From positions 1 to 6,269 of the IMG/VR virus record IMGVR_UViG_2667527792_000003: a DNA stretch of 6,269 nucleotides; one strand, 5' to 3'. The stretch comes from a virus. Its lineage: Duplodnaviria; Heunggongvirae; Uroviricota; Caudoviricetes. Positions 1 to 6,269 of this stretch are shown in pieces. Within the stretch, counting starts at the first letter, position 1, and each line of letters starts with the position of its first letter. The notes beneath the pieces were generated by a model. That model was not told where the DNA came from. It made no database searches and worked only from the letters and a program-made list of their open reading frames with translations. The translations under genes were made by a program, and so were the position numbers.

Positions 1-837
1 AGGGTTTGCGACGTTCATGCGCGCACCACCTTCAACCAGTGCAGCGAAGTCCACCGCACCGTTTTCCATCGGCAACTGTTCGCTGGCAGCCTTGATGGCA
101 TCCTGCATTTCATAAAAACGTGCAGTGCGGTTGCCATTATCGTCACGCAGACCATTGACCTGCTTTGCCACACCTTTCATGGCATCTTCCATGCTGGTAT
201 AGCTTTTTACTGCCGCCATCACTGGCGCACCCATTGCCAGCCCTGCAGCCGTGGTGGTGGCTCCGGCACCTGCAATACGATCACGCACCTCCAGCGAACG
301 GGCATAACTGGCACGCGCTGCATTCATCCTGCGCTGAGCTTCCCCCAGTCGCTTCAGCCGCGCCTCCTGTTTCGAAAGTTCCTGGTTATAACGTGATGTT
401 TCACGGGCTAAACGGGCAGTTGCTCCCGCATCGTCTTTCGCAGAAATTCCCGCCCGGTACAGTTCAGCACGCACAAGCGCCGTCTGCTGCTGCAGCTTTT
501 TCTGGCGTTCTTCCAGGCGCTGAACAGCCAGCCGTTGACGGCCCAGAGCAACAACCTGACGTTGCGAAGGCGGCCCCATCGCTCCCAGTTCCTGACTGAG
601 CAAATTTGCACGCTGGCGGGCATAGTTCAGCCTGTCGCCTAATTTCTGATTTTCTGCCTGCAGCTTTCGGAAGCTGTCCAGACTGCTCCCGGCCTGATCA
701 AGCTGCTTTATTGCATCGCGGGATTTTTTGACAGCAGCAGCCAGTTCTCTTGAACTGGCCTGCGCAGATCGAAATGGGCGGGTGAGCTTGTCAACCGCAT
801 TAAGAATGACCTGCAGACGCAGGTTGTTATCACTCAT
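1..837 (-). CDS. T: Phage tail tape measure protein (P2 gpT-like), N-terminal 279 codons; gene continues past window start
   Basis: ATG at 837-835 (minus) preceded by GGGG about 8 nt upstream. I translated the frame by hand from 837 to 1 and found no stops (MSDNNLRLQVILNAVDKLTRPFRSAQASSRELAAAVKKSRDAIKQLDQAGS...GAVDFAALVEGGARMNVANP). The Q/R/A/L-rich, coiled-coil-like composition is typical of tape measure proteins. It sits immediately downstream of E/E' with the E' stop overlapping its start, as in the P2 FI-FII-E-E'-T order. Not in the ORF track because it runs off the window. Confidence 0.8.
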   Translation of the reverse strand, partial: MSDNNLRLQVILNAVDKLTRPFRSAQASSRELAAAVKKSRDAIKQLDQAGSSLDSFRKLQAENQKLGDRLNYARQRANLLSQELGAMGPPSQRQVVALGRQRLAVQRLEERQKKLQQQTALVRAELYRAGISAKDDAGATARLARETSRYNQELSKQEARLKRLGEAQRRMNAARASYARSLEVRDRIAGAGATTTAAGLAMGAPVMAAVKSYTSMEDAMKGVAKQVNGLRDDNGNRTARFYEMQDAIKAASEQLPMENGAVDFAALVEGGARMNVANP

Positions 838-1266
838 CGTTGGCCCCGCTTCTCTGAATCGCTTTATACCGCCATTCCAGCACTTCGGTCAGCGGCATAA
901 CGTCAGTAACGGATGGCGGCCAGTGAAAAATGGTGGCGATATCTGCCACCAGATCGTCAACCGTCAGGCTGTCGGTAAACCGGCAAGCACCGACTTCTTC
1001 AACAAAAAAGTGACAACCTCAACCGACATGGCAGTGAGATCTGCCGGGTCCATCTCTGCAATTTCCTGTGCAGTCAGTGCCGGACTGGAGATGCGGGGGA
1101 TCACGGTCATCATCGCGTTTACATCCATATCCATAATGGCCTGCAGGCGTGTACCGCGTAGCGCACCGGACTGCGGTTTACGCAGCACAATTTCGGTGAT
1201 TTCTGTTTTACCGCGCTTGATGGGGGTATCCAGTTGAATGGTCTTTTCAGTCTGCTTATCGCTCAT
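830..1266 (-). CDS. Tail assembly chaperone E+E' fusion, made by programmed -1 ribosomal frameshift at 1003-1009; about 142 aa
   Basis: Slippery heptamer T TTT TTG on the minus strand (plus 1003-1009, CAAAAAA) in X XXY YYZ phase with the E frame. I translated the -1 frame by hand: FFVEEVGACRFTDSLTVDDLVADIATIFHWPPSVTDVMPLTEVLEWRYKAIQRSGANDE, open for 56 codons to a TGA at 832-830 that overlaps the T start codon. The combined length of about 142 aa is the length I recall for P2 E+E'. Confidence 0.7.
964..1266 (-). CDS. E: Tail assembly chaperone gpE (lambda G analogue), 100 aa, zero-frame product
   Basis: ORF track 964..1266 minus; ATG at 1266-1264; AGGA about 8 nt upstream; positioned between the tail tube gene and the tape measure gene; contains the slippery heptamer near its 3' end. 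Confidence 0.8.
   Translation of the reverse strand: MSDKQTEKTIQLDTPIKRGKTEITEIVLRKPQSGALRGTRLQAIMDMDVNAMMTVIPRISSPALTAQEIAEMDPADLTAMSVEVVTFLLKKSVLAGLPTA
1003..1009 (-). other. Programmed -1 frameshift slippery site (TTTTTTG)
   Basis: Heptamer read directly from the sequence; the zero frame reads ACT TTT TTG and the -1 frame reads TTT TTT GTT. Confidence 0.7.
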
Positions 1267-1291
1267 TTTGCTGTCCTGTCAATTGGGTTCT

Positions 1292-1309
1292 GGCGCGGTA
1301 TCCCGCGCC
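1292..1309 (-). other. GC-rich stem-loop (GGCGCGG-TATC-CCGCGCC) in the FII-E intergenic spacer
   Basis: Perfect 7-bp inverted repeat with a 4-nt loop, about 12 nt downstream of the FII stop and upstream of the E ribosome-binding site. No U-tract follows on the transcribed (minus) strand, so it is not a canonical intrinsic terminator. Confidence 0.45.
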
Positions 1310-1320
1310 GTTCAGATATA

Positions 1321-1836
1321 TCAGAGGCCGAGGGCGTTGCGGTGCGCTTCCATCAGGTCCACACCGTCCACAATTTCCACCATGTTGATAAGGTCCACTT
1401 CATAGAGCACCTCACCATTGATGGTCAGCTTCGCGTAGCTGTTGGTACTGGTCACTTTGGTGGTGTTGCTTTCGCCCGTCTTCCACTCGCCGGAATCCAC
1501 TTCTTTGTGACGTCCACGCACGACAAGCTCCACGGCCTGCACTTCCCCGGTATCGTCACGCTGAATAGAGCCGGTAAAGCGCAGCTGGATGCCATCCACC
1601 GTGGCTTTACCCATCTGTTTAAACAGCAGCAATTCAGTACCACCAATGGAAAATTCTGTGTCCAGCGCACTGTCATCAAGCCCCAGATCCACATCCACCG
1701 CACCCGGCATTCCGCCGCCGCGATACTTCTCATATTTGCGGGTAAATTTCGGCAGCGTCAGCGACTCAACGATCCCCTGCCAGTTGTTCCCGTCGTTAAA
1801 CAGGTTCAGGTGTTTTAATTTGCGTGGTAATGCCAT
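1321..1836 (-). CDS. FII: Phage major tail tube protein (P2 FII-like), 171 aa
   Basis: ORF track 1321..1836 minus; protein begins MALPRKLKHLNLF..., as the P2 tail tube protein does; GGGGA ribosome-binding site 4 nt upstream of the ATG; 9-bp spacer to the FI stop, consistent with translational coupling. Confidence 0.9.
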   Translation of the reverse strand: MALPRKLKHLNLFNDGNNWQGIVESLTLPKFTRKYEKYRGGGMPGAVDVDLGLDDSALDTEFSIGGTELLLFKQMGKATVDGIQLRFTGSIQRDDTGEVQAVELVVRGRHKEVDSGEWKTGESNTTKVTSTNSYAKLTINGEVLYEVDLINMVEIVDGVDLMEAHRNALGL

Positions 1837-1845
1837 GTTGTCCCC

Positions 1846-3018
1846 TTACGCGCTGACCTGGCTGGCGAAATTCACCAGGTACTGATCGGTGATGCGCTGA
1901 CGCAGCATCAGGTTTTCAAGTGGCGGCACTGGCGTGTAGTCGTAGTCGATGGTGAGTTTTCCGGCTTTCAGCGTGTCTTTGTCGTTCACCGACTCATCCA
2001 GCCAGCAATCACCACCAATGAGATAGCCCTGACTGACCAGGCTGCGCATTTTGGCGCGGATACCTTCGATAATGTCGCGGGCCAGCGACGGGTTAAGCGG
2101 TTTATCCACCGCCCACATGTGTGCTTCTGCCATCGTGTCCATCAGCACCTGCGCCGTGCGGGTGTAGTTTTCGAAGGCAAAGAGCGGGTCATCACTCAGG
2201 CAGCGGGAACCCCAGAAGCGGAAACCGTCTTTACGCACAAGCGTGGTGACGTCGTTCTGGTTCAGCAGACCTGCATCGGTTGCCGGGTCCTGCAGATCCC
2301 AGAACACATCTGCAGAAATTCCGGTGACACCGTTCACGCCCACGTTGGACAGGCTTTTGTGCCATCCGGTCTGCTCGTCAATTTTGGCGCGCAGACCAAG
2401 CGCACGGGCGGTGGCATATGCCGTTGCTTCGGCATTCAGCACCGTGTCCCAGCCAGTAAAGTCAGGCCAGATCAGCATCCCTTCGCGCTGGCTGAAGTTT
2501 TCGCGGTAAGTGATCGCCTCCTGCACTGTCTTGCAGCCATACGCTGACAGGTAAGCAAATCCACGCAGGCTTTGCGCCACGCTCAGCAACTCAGTAGCTA
2601 CCGCCTTGGTGTCGTGGCCTGGCACGCCGAGAATGCGCGGTTTAACGCCGAGCTGTGACTGGGCAGATAACAGGGCTTTCATACCTGTTTTTTTACCTTC
2701 AGCAGTCACTGCGCCGATGATATTGGTCGTGGTTTCGTCTTCCGTTTCACCCTGCGGCACACGCACAACAATGGTCACGGGTTTTGCCTGGTCAGCGATG
2801 GCATCCAGCGAACGGGCCAGAGTACCTGACTCACCCGCTTTACCGCTGGCAGTCAGCACATCAGTGATCAGCACGGGTTTATTAAGAGGAAACATTTTTG
2901 CATCGGCATCATCGCCCGTGCAGACCATACCCACGATGGCGGTGCTCACCGTGGTAATAGATCGGGTGCCTTCGTTGACTTCAACAACGCGCACCCCGTG
3001 GTGGTAATCCTGAGCCAT
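1846..3018 (-). CDS. FI: Phage contractile tail sheath protein (P2 FI-like), 390 aa
   Basis: ORF track 1846..3018 minus; translation carries motifs I recognise from the P2 sheath family (…[10 protein letters not shown]…FWDLQ…DDPLF…[10 protein letters not shown]…[14 protein letters not shown]…); strong AGGAGG ribosome-binding site 9 nt upstream of the ATG. Confidence 0.92.
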
Positions 3019-3039
3019 AGTGGCGAACCTCCTGATTGG

Positions 3040-3120
3040 ATTAGGCTTCGCCCTATGTTGAAGTGATTGTGCCTGACAAACAGCTAAGCGCAGTTGTGTC
3101 GTTATTCACACAAAATAACG
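3040..3120 (-). promoter_or_regulatory. Candidate P2-type late promoter (PF-like) for the FI-FII-E-T operon, with a TGT-N12-ACA activator dyad at 3095-3112
   Basis: 142-bp non-coding gap between the invertase stop and the FI start. It contains TGTgtcgttattcacACA (3095-3112), matching the TGT-N12-ACA dyad bound by Ogr/Delta-type zinc-finger activators at P2/P4 late promoters, centred about 85 bp upstream of the FI ATG. The dyad is embedded in a longer inverted repeat, CGTTATT-N7-AATAACG (3100-3120). I could not pick out a convincing -10 hexamer by eye. Confidence 0.35.
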
Positions 3121-3160
3121 GTATTTGTCTGCTTGCAGGGATAATCAACATAATGCTGAT

Positions 3161-3727
3161 TCAGGGGGATTCATTGATCTTATTTGCCGGAAATTTTCTA
3201 TAAATGGTAGAAACGCCTACATCAAAAATCAGTGCAATACGCTGTCTTGATTCTCCGGCCTCGAGTAAACGCCCAATCTGTGCCCACTGTTCGGTGGTCA
3301 ACTTAGGACGGCGTCCACCTACTCTGCCTTTGGCACGAGCTGCAGCCAGCCCTGCCCTGGTACGTTCAACTATCAGTTCGCGTTCCATTTCAGCCAGGGC
3401 ACCCATGACATGAAAAAAGAAACGACCCATTGGGGTACTGGTATCAATACTGTCAGTCAGGCTTCTGAAATTCACACCACGCTGGCGCAACTCTTCTATC
3501 AGCGTAACAAGATGCCGCATACTGCGCCCCAACCTGTCCAGCTTCCAGACAACCAGCGTGTCTCCTGCCGATAGTGTCCTGAGTAGTTTTTTCAGCCCCG
3601 GTCTGTCGGACTTAGTGCCACTGATTTTGTCCTCAAAAATCTGCTCACATCCCGCGCAGTTCAGTGCATTACGTTGCAAATCGGTGTTCTGGTCATTTGT
3701 TGACACGCGTACATAGCCAATAAGCAT
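3161..3727 (-). CDS. pin: Serine-recombinase DNA invertase (Pin/Gin/Hin/Cin family), 188 aa
   Basis: ORF track 3161..3733 minus. The protein has the resolvase/invertase catalytic N-terminus (MLIGYVRVSTNDQNTDLQRNAL, with the catalytic Ser in RVS) and a C-terminal helix-turn-helix. The true start is probably the second ATG at 3727, which has an AGGGGG ribosome-binding site with 6-nt spacing; the first ATG at 3733 abuts it. By recollection it is closest to e14 Pin and Mu Gin. Confidence 0.9.
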   Translation of the reverse strand: MLIGYVRVSTNDQNTDLQRNALNCAGCEQIFEDKISGTKSDRPGLKKLLRTLSAGDTLVVWKLDRLGRSMRHLVTLIEELRQRGVNFRSLTDSIDTSTPMGRFFFHVMGALAEMERELIVERTRAGLAAARAKGRVGGRRPKLTTEQWAQIGRLLEAGESRQRIALIFDVGVSTIYRKFPANKINESP

Positions 3728-3754
3728 GATCATCCCCCTGAATAAAAACCGGAG

Positions 3755-3979
3755 ATGATGCCAGTTAGCTGTTACCTCTGCATTTTCTTAAACGTTGGTT
3801 TAGGAGAAGGCTCTGCATTACCGGTTGGGGTGCCTGTTCCGTGGCCTTCAGCCACTCCGCCAACAGGCTGGCTGAAATGCAATGGTGCGGCTTTTTCTGC
3901 TGAAGAATACCCGGAACTGGCAAAGGCTTACCCGACCAATAAATTGCCTGATTTACGTGGTCACCTGCATTCTGGTTAA
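3755..3979 (+). CDS. Tail-fibre C-terminal variable-domain cassette, silent orientation, fragment; family homology covers only about 3809-3961
   Basis: Translation ...PVGVPVPWPSATPPTGWLKCNGAAFSAEEYPELAKAYPTNKLPDLRG is the conserved start of tail-fibre variable C-termini (Mu S/S', P1 S, e14 Stf, lambda Stf families). It starts at the crossover site and reads away from the invertase, as a silent cassette does. Homology ends abruptly after LPDLRG at about 3961; the ORF's last 6 codons and stop come from the adjoining dcuS fragment. Confidence 0.75.
   Translation: MMPVSCYLCIFLNVGLGEGSALPVGVPVPWPSATPPTGWLKCNGAAFSAEEYPELAKAYPTNKLPDLRGHLHSG
3783..3808. other. Inversion crossover site (gix/cix/pix/hix-like 26-bp imperfect palindrome)
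   Basis: TTTTCTTAAACG-TT-GGTTTAGGAGAA: two 12-bp half-sites, 9 of 12 positions symmetric, around a 2-bp core. It matches the AAACC-NN-GGTTT-type core shared by the Din-family crossover sites, and lies exactly where the tail-fibre variable domain begins, 56 bp from the invertase start. Confidence 0.6.
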
Positions 3980-4205
3980 GGTACTGAAAAAAATCCTTTT
4001 CGGCCTGGAACCCTACGAAATCTCCACGCTGTTTGAGCAACGCCAGGCCATGTTGCAGTCTATCAAAGAAGGCGTCGTTGCCGTGGACGATCGCGGCGAG
4101 GTCACGCTGATCAACGATGCCGCACAAGAATTGCTGAATTACCGTAAGTCGCAGGACGATGAGAAACTGTCGACGCTAAGCCACTCATGGTCACAGGTGG
4201 TAGAC
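3962..4205 (+). pseudogene. dcuS: Internal fragment of the C4-dicarboxylate sensor histidine kinase gene dcuS (about 80 codons, no start or stop of its own)
   Basis: Translation TCILVKVLKKILFGLEPYEISTLFEQRQAMLQSIKEGVVAVDDRGEVTLINDAAQELLNYRKSQDDEKLSTLSHSWSQVVD matches, from memory, the segment after the second transmembrane helix and into the cytoplasmic PAS domain of E. coli DcuS. Homology starts and stops mid-codon-run with no flanking intergenic sequence. Confidence 0.7.
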
Positions 4206-4453
4206 ATCGCGCCAATCAGCGCATCCAGCAGAATATCGCCGGTCAGCGAGGCAAAGATCACCTGAACGCCGTTTGCCTGGGTGATCGGCGTTACGGCCTG
4301 CACAATCAACTCCAGCGCCAGCAAAATCAGCCCAAATATGGTCAACGCCCACTGCGCCGACGCCATGGTCTGCATCTCTAACTGCGACAAAATCACCCCG
4401 GGGATGCTGATGGCTTCCCTGCGCCTGAATATTCCGGTGATCTTTGTTTCCGG
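4206..4453 (-). pseudogene. 5' leader plus first 57 codons of an unidentified inner-membrane protein gene (fragment)
   Basis: Minus-strand translation [57 protein letters not shown], from ATG at 4375-4373, is hydrophobic and transmembrane-like. About 78 bp of upstream sequence is included. The frame is cut at about 4206 by the dcuS fragment. I do not recognise the gene. Confidence 0.4.
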
Positions 4454-4717
4454 CCCTGCACCTTTAGCGACCACTTTCGGTGCGCTCATTTTGTTTTCGT
4501 CATACTGCAACGCTACCGAATAGTGGGTCGGGTTATTGACAATGACATCCGCTTTCGGCACATCGGCCATCATCCGACGCCGTGCGGCAGCTCGCTGCAT
4601 CTGACGGATCCGTCCTTTAACATGGGGGTCGCCTTCGCTTTGTTTGAACTCATCACGAATATCCTGCCGCGACATTCGCAGCTTTTTCAGGTGGCTGAAG
4701 ATTTGGAAAAATACCTG
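4454..4717 (-). pseudogene. flhB: Internal fragment of the flagellar export-apparatus gene flhB (about 88 codons spanning the NPTH autocleavage motif)
   Basis: Minus-strand translation [87 protein letters not shown] matches the FlhB/YscU-family linker and cytoplasmic domain, including the conserved NPTH site. There is no native start or stop. The ORF-track start at 4720 is a GTG created by the junction. Confidence 0.8.
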
Positions 4718-6269
4718 CACCTATTGTTCCGTAGGCTGTGGGCTGTTGATGTACAGCCTCGGTGACGGAGCAAAAAACGCCAAAGCATCTATCTTCCATA
4801 TCGAAGGCGATCCGGATCACCCGGTCAACCGCGGTGCACTTTGTCCGAAAGGCGCTGGCCTGGTGGATTTCATCCACTCCGAAAGCCGTCTGAAGTTTCC
4901 GGAATACCGTGCGCCAGGTTCTGATAAATGGCAGCAAATCAGTTGGGAAGAGGCGTTTGATCGCATCGCCAAACTGATGAAAGAAGACCGCGATGCTAAC
5001 TACATTGCGCAAAACGCCGAAGGCGTGACTGTTAACCGCTGGCTCTCCACCGGGATGCTGTGTGCTTCCGCGTCGAGTAACGAAACCGGCTATTTAACGC
5101 AAAAATTCTCCCGCGCGCTGGGTATGCTCGCGGTCGACAACCAGGCGCGTGTCTGACACGGACCAACGGTAGCAAGTCTTGCTCCAACATTTGGTCGCGG
5201 TGCGATGACCAACCACTGGGTCGACATCAAGAACGCCAACCTCGTCGTGGTGATGGGCGGTAACGCCGCTGAAGCTCACCCGGTCGGGTTCCGCTGGGCG
5301 ATGGAAGCCAAAATTCACAACGGCGCGAAGCTGATTGTGATCGATCCTCGCTTTACGCGTACGGCGGCGGTAGCTGACTACTATGCCCCTATTCGTTCCG
5401 GTACTGACATTGCTTTCCTGTCAGGCGTATTGCTGTACCTGCTGAACAATGAAAAATTCAACCGCGAATACACCGAAGCCTATACCAACGCCAGCCTGAT
5501 AGTGCGTGAGGATTACGGCTTTGAAGATGGCCTGTTCACCGGCTACGACGCGGAAAAACGCAAGTACGATAAATCCTCCTGGACTTATGAACTGGACGAA
5601 AACGGCTTCGCCAAACGCGATACCACGCTGCAACATCCGCGCTGCGTGTGGAACTTGCTGAAACAGCACGTTTCCCGCTACACGCCAGATGTGGTTGAAA
5701 ACATCTGTGGTACGCCAAAAGACGCGTTCCTGAAAGTCTGCGAATACATCGCAGAAACCAGTGCTCACGATAAAACTGCCTCGTTCCTGTATGCCCTCGG
5801 CTGGACGCAACACTCCGTTGGTGCGCAAAACATTCGTACGATGGCGATGATCCAGCTGCTGCTCGGCAATATGGGGATGGCCGGCGGCGGCGTTAACGCC
5901 CTGCGCGGTCACTCCAATATTCAGGGGCTGACGGACCTGGGGCTACTGTCGCAGAGTCTGCCAGGTTACATGACGCTGCCAAGCGAGAAGCAGACCGATC
6001 TGCAAACCTACCTTACCGCCAACACGCCAAAACCGCTGCTGGAAGGCCAGGTAAACTACTGGGGCAACTACCCGAAATTCTTCGTCTCTATGATGAAGGC
6101 CTTCTTTGGTGATAAAGCGACGGCGGAAAATAGCTGGGGCTTTGACTGGTTGCCGAAGTGGGATAAAGGCTACGACGTCCTGCAGTACTTCGAGATGATG
6201 AAAGAGGGCAAGGTCAATGGCTATATCTGCCAGGGCTTTAACCCTGTTGCCTCATTCCCGAACAAAAAC
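4718..6269 (+). CDS. fdoG: Formate dehydrogenase alpha (major, selenocysteine-containing molybdopterin) subunit, FdoG/FdnG family; 5'-truncated and running past the window end
   Basis: Translation starts at the N-terminal 4Fe-4S cysteine motif (NTCTYCSVGCG) and continues ...LAVDNQARV-U-HGPTVASLAPTFGRGAMTNHWVD...GNMGMAGGGVNALRGHSNIQGL...GFNPVASFPNKN, in frame to the last base. The twin-arginine signal peptide and native start are absent from the window. I favour fdoG over fdnG from memory of the two paralogues, but they cannot be separated without an alignment. Confidence 0.85.
5154..5196 (+). other. Selenocysteine UGA codon (5154-5156) with a candidate SECIS stem-loop immediately downstream
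   Basis: In-frame TGA at the conserved ...ARV-U-HGPT... position of formate dehydrogenase alpha subunits. Directly 3' there is dyad symmetry: GACCAA (5161-5166) pairs with TTGGTC (5191-5196), enclosing an inner GCAAG/CTTGC pairing. This is the position where bacterial SECIS hairpins sit. Confidence 0.7.

Follow-up and report, generated by a model that had tools for sequence, protein, structure and literature searches.

A 750-bp patchwork of Escherichia coli gene pieces between a P2-family prophage and fdoG in a draft contig: a probable production artefact

The window analysed here, a stretch of 6,269 bp, is the entire contig CDRT01000912.1 of the draft assembly GCA_001373215.1 (Escherichia coli). 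Between a truncated tail-fibre cassette and fdoG it carries a 750-bp patchwork (3962-4711) composed of four internal gene pieces. The patchwork and its two outer joins very probably represent an artefact of draft-genome production and not a chromosomal structure. A chimeric or mis-assembled contig had been proposed in a preliminary description of this DNA, and it is favoured, on circumstantial grounds, by every test run, namely the uniqueness of the arrangement, the chance level of the overlaps, the lack of a mobile signature, and the origin of the pieces from self DNA.

Composition of the contig

The left 3,961 bp are P2-family prophage, colinear without gaps with a native prophage locus (L006). 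The right part, from 3962 to 6269, is fully covered by five native gene pieces with identities of 99.6-100%. The features are as follows.

1-837, minus strand: 3' part of a P2-family tail tape-measure gene, running off the left contig end (colinearity with L006 and its annotation, gene call)
964-1266, minus strand: P2 gpE-type tail assembly chaperone (Pfam Phage_TAC_7; a GpE family gene follows in native loci)
1003-1009, minus strand: slippery site TTTTTTG for an E/E' frameshift product (heptamer found inside the chaperone gene)
1321-1836, minus strand: tail tube gene (Pfam Phage_tube; major tail tube protein in the L006 annotation)
1846-3018, minus strand: tail sheath gene (Pfam Phage_sheath_1)
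3161-3733, minus strand: serine DNA invertase of the Gin/Pin/Hin type (Pfam Resolvase and HTH_7; 'recombinase family protein' in native loci)
3783-3808, no strand assigned: 26-bp invertase crossover site TTTTCTTAAACGTTGGTTTAGGAGAA (exact copy in L006 at 9784)
3783-3961, plus strand: alternative tail-fibre C-terminal cassette, truncated (native-prophage homology stops exactly at 3961)
3962-4204, plus strand: dcuS internal piece, gene nt 591-833, sense, 243 bp (K-12, 243/243; FORC_069, 242/243)
4205-4335, minus strand: yjbB internal piece, gene nt 410-540, antisense in the window, 131 bp (native locus L002 and FORC_069, 131/131)
4336-4454, plus strand: ilvD internal piece, gene nt 317-435, sense, 119 bp (K-12, native locus L003 and FORC_069, 119/119)
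4455-4711, minus strand: flhB internal piece, gene nt 625-881, 257 bp (FORC_069, 257/257; error-free over 4455-4711 in native locus L004)
4712-6269, plus strand: fdoG nt 144-1701, lacking the first 143 nt and running off the right contig end (B1-type genomes; colinear with native locus L005 and K-12)
5151-5209, plus strand: fdoG selenocysteine codon TGA (5154-5156) with SECIS element (Rfam SECIS_3, 84.3 bits, E=1.4e-19)

The prophage genes follow the P2-family order, with tail fibre and invertible cassettes, invertase, sheath (FI), tube (FII), E/E' and tape measure (T). The crossover site is present in one copy in the window and its inverted partner is missing; in L006 the partner lies at 11380-11405, within the tail-fibre gene. 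The tail-fibre cassette is cut after about 60 codons, the native version running approximately 330 bp longer. A protein identical to that encoded by the sheath gene is very common in E. coli prophages.

Concerning the right part, the B1-type genome FORC_069 matches the patchwork at 749 of 750 bases and the fdoG part at 1558 of 1558, and the latter is equally identical to many other B1-type genomes. As a single genome of phylogroup-B1 type thus matches all pieces almost perfectly, these are DNA of the strain itself. Contamination by K-12 or a cloning host was considered as a source of the scraps and rejected, since the flhB piece agrees with K-12 at only 250 of 257 positions (7 mismatches) and one B1-type genome fits all pieces. 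The source genes are far apart, as the preliminary description had stated for dcuS, flhB and fdoG, with K-12 map positions of 4.351 Mb for dcuS, 4.228 for yjbB (piece at 4,228,140-4,228,270), 4.085 for fdoG, 3.954 for ilvD and 1.965 for flhB.

The same description had correctly recognized a dcuS internal piece on the plus strand, an flhB internal piece on the minus strand and an fdoG without its 5' end, and had counted three fragments of about 250 bp and four junctions. There are actually four fragments and five junctions, because the stretch assigned to 4206-4453 consists of a yjbB and an ilvD piece separated by a further join at 4335/4336. The supposed start of an unidentified membrane-protein gene in this stretch (MQTMASAQW) is no gene start and arises where antisense ilvD continues in frame into internal yjbB. 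The near-uniform fragment size falls with the miscount, as the sizes are 243, 131, 119 and 257 bp and become similar only if the yjbB and ilvD pieces are lumped (250 bp), and the argument for concatenated reads of uniform size, which rested on it, falls as well. The artificial open reading frames at 4139-4720 (minus) and 4644-5156 (plus) are present as described; the 'stop' closing the second is the fdoG selenocysteine codon, followed by the SECIS element. A further open reading frame at 4749-5156, at first taken as 'chimeric', consists entirely of native fdoG and is uninformative.

Junctions and their occurrence elsewhere

The five blunt junctions lie at 3961/3962 (J1), 4204/4205 (J2), 4335/4336 (J3), 4454/4455 (J4) and 4711/4712 (J5), with an ambiguity of 1 nt at J2 and of 2 nt at both J4 and J5. 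Of the positions given earlier, 3961/3962 stands, and 4205/4206, 4453/4454 and 4717/4718 move to J2, J4 and J5, respectively. The observation that homology to one locus stops dead where another begins, with no intergenic DNA, holds and extends to the lack of filler bases. Indeed, no filler bases, IS ends, att sites, recombinase sites or repeats were detected at any of the five joins; no direct repeats were found to flank them, and neither a transposase open reading frame nor IS homology was found in the whole contig. The earlier statement that no IS element, integrase, att site or repeat marks the junctions is therefore correct for the joins themselves and needs amending for their surroundings, where the DNA invertase and its crossover site lie nearby.

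The overlaps at J1 to J5 amount to 0, 1, 0, 2 and 2 bp, a total of 5 compared with a null mean of 3.4 (P=0.26), and imperfect in-register homology at the joins gave P=0.07. The microhomology is thus no greater than that given by random concatenation. As regards repeat boundaries at which an assembler might have ended its contigs, J1 sits 23-60 bp ahead of the point at which the cassette alleles diverge, J5 coincides with the start of fdoG/fdnG similarity, where the longest exact match is merely 11 nt, and the contig passes through a 71-nt exact paralog repeat. The sequence at both ends of the contig is unique, which fits an assembly limited by coverage. The assembly is very fragmented, with at least 912 contigs as implied by the contig number.

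Each piece, taken separately, is present in nearly all of 5,426 complete E. coli genomes and could be matched to its native locus, as the preliminary description had recommended, and the stretch 3700-5000 is contiguous in none of them. The joins occur in none of these genomes. Similarly, a search of 596 Gb of species-representative genomes, of the JGI metagenome contigs and of IMG/VR gave no match to 26-27-mers spanning the five junctions. Among 153 billion gene positions, which include independent Logan re-assemblies of public runs, one contig of one sample was the only place with the chimeric open reading frames of 193 and 127 aa. The normal neighbours were always there in 10 native copies of the prophage allele and 10 native fdoG loci.

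Proposed route and two non-random features

In the favoured reading, pieces of self DNA only 119-257 bp long would have been butted end to end, bridging two unrelated genuine contigs, one from the tail region of a P2-type prophage and one from fdoG, and the joining would have happened outside the cell. Since one short-read pair cannot cover five joins, the sequence must stem from a concatemer present in many copies, from a clone or long read, or from joining in silico; the patchwork is error-free, a point against this reading, and is thus not a single noisy long read. Two routes may be envisaged. Small sheared fragments could have been blunt-ligated into a concatemer, which would then have been cloned or amplified before sequencing. 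Alternatively, software could have scaffolded tiny contigs with later loss of the gap characters, or filled gaps faultily.

The first route has a close counterpart in the ligation chimeras of shotgun libraries, described for 454 libraries, which are modelled as random concatenations and likewise comprise unrelated pieces of the same genome, joined bluntly without filler, seen once and with microhomology at the level of random concatenation (PMC3411829). Overlaps at chance level are a signature of such concatenation. The present case differs in having six segments in a row instead of two, clustered source loci and a motif at three piece starts; moreover, five joins exceed one molecule of a short-read library, so that one has to assume cloning, amplification of a concatemer or joining by software. 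The second route is reminiscent of mis-scaffolded or gap-stripped contigs, in that four pieces shorter than 300 bp stand between larger contigs, no base is gained or lost and the assembly is so fragmented. In contrast to such contigs, single-copy genes from distant loci are involved here, which paired reads should not link, and the ends of both large pieces lie away from clean repeat boundaries, so that a simple model of glued assembler contigs is not directly supported.

Two features are not accounted for by simple random concatenation. Three of the five right-hand pieces start with NN-CCTGCA at the same offset (CA-CCTGCA-TT, GC-CCTGCA-CCT and TA-CCTGCA-CCT); a 6-mer common to three of ten ends has P=0.006 and a 9-mer common to two ends P=0.004, the statistic having been picked after seeing the data. 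In addition, the chromosomal source loci are clustered, four out of five falling in a 397-kb segment adjoining oriC (P=0.011-0.021, again with a statistic picked after seeing the data). Both count against an artefact, as random shearing and ligation do not predict a motif and ligation chimeras should sample the genome regardless of distance (PMC3411829).

Several sources of the motif were considered and discarded. An IS150-like terminal repeat behind the CCTGCACC motif was compared using the confirmed IRL sequence, and the piece starts resembled IS150 ends no more than expected at random (best score 9; 8-10 at the 95th-99th percentile of the null). Restriction half-sites, type IIS sites (AarI/BspMI, BsgI), CviJI, Cas9 PAM geometry, DnaG CTG priming, the Tn5 target consensus and common sequencing adapters each failed to fit all three motif-bearing ends; these comparisons of the ten fragment ends were made by eye and represent leads, not database tests.

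Alternative explanations and consequences

Chimerism during whole-genome amplification (phi29 MDA), in which displaced 3' ends prime on new templates, is highly improbable. It is known to produce chimeric DNA and fragmented assemblies in E. coli single-cell data (PMC1855051), and by multiplying one chimeric molecule it would allow short reads to cover five joins, so that it shares with the present case an artefactual rearrangement of E. coli DNA in enough copies to be assembled. However, inverted sequences with intervening deletions, arising within one molecule, make up more than 85% of MDA chimeras, and a priming complementarity of 2-21 nt is seen in more than 70% (Lasken & Stockwell 2007, PMC1855051), whereas here the pieces are inter-locus and in mixed orientation, the distances between source loci range from 120 kb to 2 Mb, and the overlaps of 0-2 bp are at chance level. 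Even less credible is a construct assembled on purpose from fragments of genes and introduced into the strain; an engineered or synthetic construct had been among the explanations named in the preliminary description. Blunt, scar-free internal pieces of about 120-260 bp do look designed, and a site of AarI/BspMI type (CACCTGC) stands at the start of the dcuS piece, but this site is native dcuS sequence. All bases from 1 to 6269 are natural, being native prophage or native B1-type E. coli, with no vector, marker, FRT/lox scar, linker or added restriction site; the alleles are not those of laboratory K-12, as the flhB mismatches indicate, and a literature search for CDRT01 and GCA_001373215 returned nothing relevant and no paper citing the accession. 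The least probable of all is a product of a mobile element or site-specific recombinase, by action of the invertase on pseudo-sites or by one-ended IS transposition collecting flanking scraps. An invertase gene and a crossover site are indeed found at a distance of 150-800 bp from J1, and the directional motif superficially resembles the IS150 left end (CTGCACC), a resemblance that does not exceed the random range reported above. The crossover site is, however, 153 bp away from J1 and no junction resembles the 26-bp site, which leads to the rejection of invertase-mediated exchange, and the contig holds no terminal repeat.

A real chromosomal rearrangement is very unlikely. It would require that the P2-type prophage broke within its invertible tail-fibre segment, and that the broken end became linked to fdoG through four short stretches copied from genes of the same cell. 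It might have proceeded by serial template switching during fork or break-induced replication (FoSTeS/MMBIR-like, 'chromoanasynthesis') or by end joining of DNA scraps. The size of the pieces and the multi-piece build resemble the templated insertions of replication-based complex rearrangements, where strings of short insertions come from several, often nearby, loci in mixed orientation, and the pieces are error-free self DNA. The clustered loci belong to one replichore, as predicted by proximity-dependent switching; the common directional motif, read on the minus strand as TGCAGG plus 2 nt at three switches (P ~0.005), could mark a pause site; and three of the five joins overlap by 1-2 bp, with the weak homeology noted above. 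Against these points, J1 and J3 have no overlap and the total is at chance, whereas template switching and alternative end-joining (A-EJ) in E. coli need microhomology. FoSTeS/MMBIR junctions usually carry at least 2 nt of it, and no multi-fragment event of this kind is known from a natural E. coli isolate. Nor is E. coli known to possess a Ku/LigD end-joining system. A-EJ resembles the present joins in being an end joining independent of homologous recombination, and three of them overlap by 1-2 nt; in the Chayot model the ends are resected by RecBCD and pair through microhomology of 1-9 nt, deletions being the typical outcome (summarised in bioRxiv 10.1101/605246), and microhomology of 1-3 nt was present in every event of that study. 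In contrast, the 0 nt at J1 and J3 depart from the 1-9 nt expected at every junction under A-EJ or microhomology-mediated end joining, and four extra fragments are inserted here. Likewise, all experimentally verified spontaneous rearrangements in a Salmonella study needed at least 8-12 bp of microhomology (PMC3411829). Finally, a single small contig from a highly fragmented draft carries the joins, which occur in none of the complete genomes or other collections searched. A more specific proposal is that successive template switches in a natural B1 E. coli repaired the break in the invertible tail-fibre segment onto fdoG, copying the four pieces mostly from the 400 kb next to oriC, with three of the switches two bases after TGCAGG. 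It is very unlikely; if true, bacteria would have their own form of chromoanasynthesis, in which the point of switching is sequence-specific.

If the joins were real, they would represent a rare documented multi-fragment, homology-independent rearrangement in wild E. coli and would open a way to study end joining or template switching where the species is thought to be without such repair; if, in addition, the event were non-duplicative, ilvD, flhB, dcuS, yjbB, fdoG and the prophage would all have been destroyed at once. If the patchwork is an artefact, it is a data-quality flag only: CDRT01000912.1 and the chimeric 'proteins' derived from it would be unfit for studies of gene content, synteny or rearrangement, and the same would probably hold for the whole of GCA_001373215.1. 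One chimeric 'protein' of this contig is already in UniParc, under UPI00070AC8EC.

Prophage tail region and the five gene pieces

The window DNA is that of E. coli, and positions 1-3961 are a P2-family prophage tail region with its genes on the minus strand. It aligns colinearly and gap-free with the native prophage L006 (NZ_AP042495.1) up to exactly 3961, a point 153 bp inside the invertible segment and away from the crossover site. In L006 the cassette runs about 330 bp further and is followed by the tail-fibre assembly gene, the opposite cassettes and genes H-I-J-W-V. The inverted partner of the crossover site, which L006 carries inside the tail-fibre gene (11380-11405), is absent from the window, and thus the tail-fibre switch, as represented in the contig, could not invert. 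All bases from 3962 to the end fall into five pieces, with no filler nucleotides, as established by BLAST searches of 5,426 complete E. coli genomes and by comparing the window base by base with the native loci.

Features of the window (sense and antisense refer to the gene from which a piece derives)
to 837, minus: tape measure, partial
964-1266, minus: gpE-type chaperone
1003-1009, minus: TTTTTTG slippery heptamer, close to the 3' end of the chaperone gene
1321-1836, minus: tube
1846-3018, minus: sheath
3161-3733, minus: serine DNA invertase, Gin/Hin-type
3783-3808, plus: 26-bp invertase crossover site, opening an alternative tail-fibre C-terminal cassette
3962-4204, sense: dcuS nt 591-833 (243 bp)
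4205-4335, antisense: yjbB nt 410-540 (131 bp)
4336-4454, sense: ilvD nt 317-435 (119 bp)
4455-4711, antisense: flhB nt 625-881 (257 bp)
4712-6269, sense: fdoG nt 144-1701, reaching the contig end

The heptamer would be the expected P2 E/E' programmed -1 frameshift site, and a separate 39-aa GpE-family product is annotated in native loci.

A patchwork with blunt joins had been proposed in the preliminary description and is indeed observed, with corrections to the fragment count, the identities and one junction. In particular, the four pieces counted from 3962 are five, as the second one consists of yjbB and ilvD, whose join produced the illusion of an unidentified membrane-protein gene start; the last junction, placed at 4717/4718, was 6 nt off (4711/4712); and the "stop" of ORF 4644..5156 is really the selenocysteine codon of fdoG, accompanied by its SECIS element (Rfam SECIS_3, 84 bits).

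Origin of the pieces and uniqueness of the joins

In K-12, the pieces map to 4.351 (dcuS), 4.228 (yjbB), 3.954 (ilvD), 1.965 (flhB) and 4.085 Mb (fdoG), in mixed orientations. Identity to K-12 is 250/257 for flhB, 130/131 for yjbB and 1553/1558 for fdoG; judged by these counts, the pieces are not K-12 alleles. Many phylogroup-B1-type genomes carry the fdoG piece at 100% identity, and the other pieces match the B1-type genome FORC_069 at 242/243 (dcuS), 131/131 (yjbB), 119/119 (ilvD) and 257/257 (flhB) positions, so that the patchwork is essentially error-free against this genome. The near-perfect match to B1-type alleles indicates that it was built from the strain's own DNA; together with the lack of filler, this leaves the suggested engineered construct unsupported.

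Exact look-up of the chimeric ORFs identifies the window as the entire contig CDRT01000912.1 (6,269 bp) of the draft assembly GCA_001373215.1. From its number, the assembly has at least 912 contigs, several times the number usual for an E. coli draft. The sequence at both contig ends is unique, and a 71-nt exact fdoG/fdnG repeat was read through, which is consistent with a coverage-limited, fragmentary assembly. As had been advised, a native locus was sought for each fragment by BLAST and found; the same joins, and 3700-5000 as a contiguous stretch, occur in none of the 5,426 complete genomes. Ordinary neighbours are kept at each of ten native fdoG loci and in each of ten native copies of the prophage allele. 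The five junction 26-27-mers gave no match in species-representative genomes, metagenome contigs or viral contigs. A search of 153 billion gene positions, which include re-assemblies made independently from public runs, places the 193-aa and 127-aa chimeric products in CDRT01000912.1 alone; the sole other cluster member is a UniParc copy of the chimera that starts at an internal Met. This copy, UPI00070AC8EC, is an active 143-aa entry for the flhB/anti-ilvD/yjbB/anti-dcuS ORF and acts as a cluster representative in protein databases.

Junction anatomy and possible sources of the joins

The contig is very probably an artefactual chimera. The preliminary preference for a chimeric or mis-assembled contig is favoured, though not proven, and the patchwork is in all likelihood no genuine biological feature. 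Parental overlap at the five joins, in order, is 0, 1, 0, 2 and 2 bp, a total of 5, where E. coli DNA joined bluntly at random gives a null mean of 3.4 (P=0.26; P=0.07 when imperfect in-register homology is allowed). As previously noted for IS elements, att sites and repeats, the sequences flanking the five joins contain no repeat, direct or inverted, and no IS end, att site or invertase pseudo-site. A genome-wide study of spontaneous rearrangement in Salmonella modelled ligation chimeras as random concatenation, exactly the type seen here; in every experimentally verified real event, the microhomology at the junction was at least 8-12 bp (PMC3411829). The joins do not fit the RecBCD-dependent pathway requiring 1-9 nt of microhomology, the sole native end-joining route described for E. 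coli (bioRxiv 10.1101/605246), nor MDA chimeras, which are mostly inverted and intramolecular and prime on 2-21 nt (PMC1855051).

A real replication-based event with multiple template switches is very unlikely, but two features keep some probability for it. Of the five right-hand pieces, three begin with NN-CCTGCA at an identical offset, given the ambiguity of the junctions (3962-3969, 4453-4463, 4712-4722), as CA-CCTGCA-TT in dcuS, GC-CCTGCA-CCT in flhB and TA-CCTGCA-CCT in fdoG; the 9-mer CCTGCACCT is common to the flhB and fdoG starts (4455 and 4714). The motif is at none of the five left-hand ends, making the signal directional, and comparison, partly by eye, with restriction sites, adapters, IS ends and recombinase sites gave nothing that explains it. 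Moreover, dcuS, yjbB, fdoG and ilvD lie in a 397-kb arc (3.954-4.351 Mb) of one replichore beside oriC, with only flhB outside. Both statistics were picked after the data were seen: in Monte Carlo draws of non-redundant E. coli DNA, P=0.006 for a 6-mer common to three of ten fragment ends and P=0.004 for a 9-mer common to two, and for the clustering P=0.011 under a uniform null and 0.013-0.021 with origin-weighted copy number.

For an artefactual chimera, an Illumina pair cannot span five joins over 750 bp, the middle join being lost, which leaves three kinds of source. A multi-copy physical concatemer could have arisen from small fragments co-ligated in a clone or from DNA ligated and then amplified; one long accurate read might have carried the joins; or, in a software join, tiny contigs may have been placed between two larger ones in a scaffold, with the gap characters then dropped or "filled". 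All four internal pieces are below 300 bp, which suits both the concatemer and the software-join routes.

Observations on related loci

In K-12, fdoG and its paralog fdnG share 71 consecutive identical bases (window 5151-5221) spanning the selenocysteine codon and SECIS hairpin, with identity of only about 78-86% around this block, a pattern suggestive of gene conversion or of strong purifying selection acting on the recoding signal. NZ_CP026085.1, labelled "Escherichia coli strain DH5alpha", carries a B1-type fdoG allele 100% identical to that of the window, from which K-12 MG1655 differs at 5 of 1,558 positions, and is perhaps not derived from K-12. In one native copy of the prophage (GCA_006097015.1, AAEOSF010000028.1, 488-5858), genes for flagellin, Flag1_repress (FljA-like) and a second resolvase-type invertase take the place of the baseplate and tail-fibre genes that lie upstream of the invertible cassettes; by its predicted gene content, this insert is a flagellar phase-variation module abutting the phage's own invertible tail-fibre segment.
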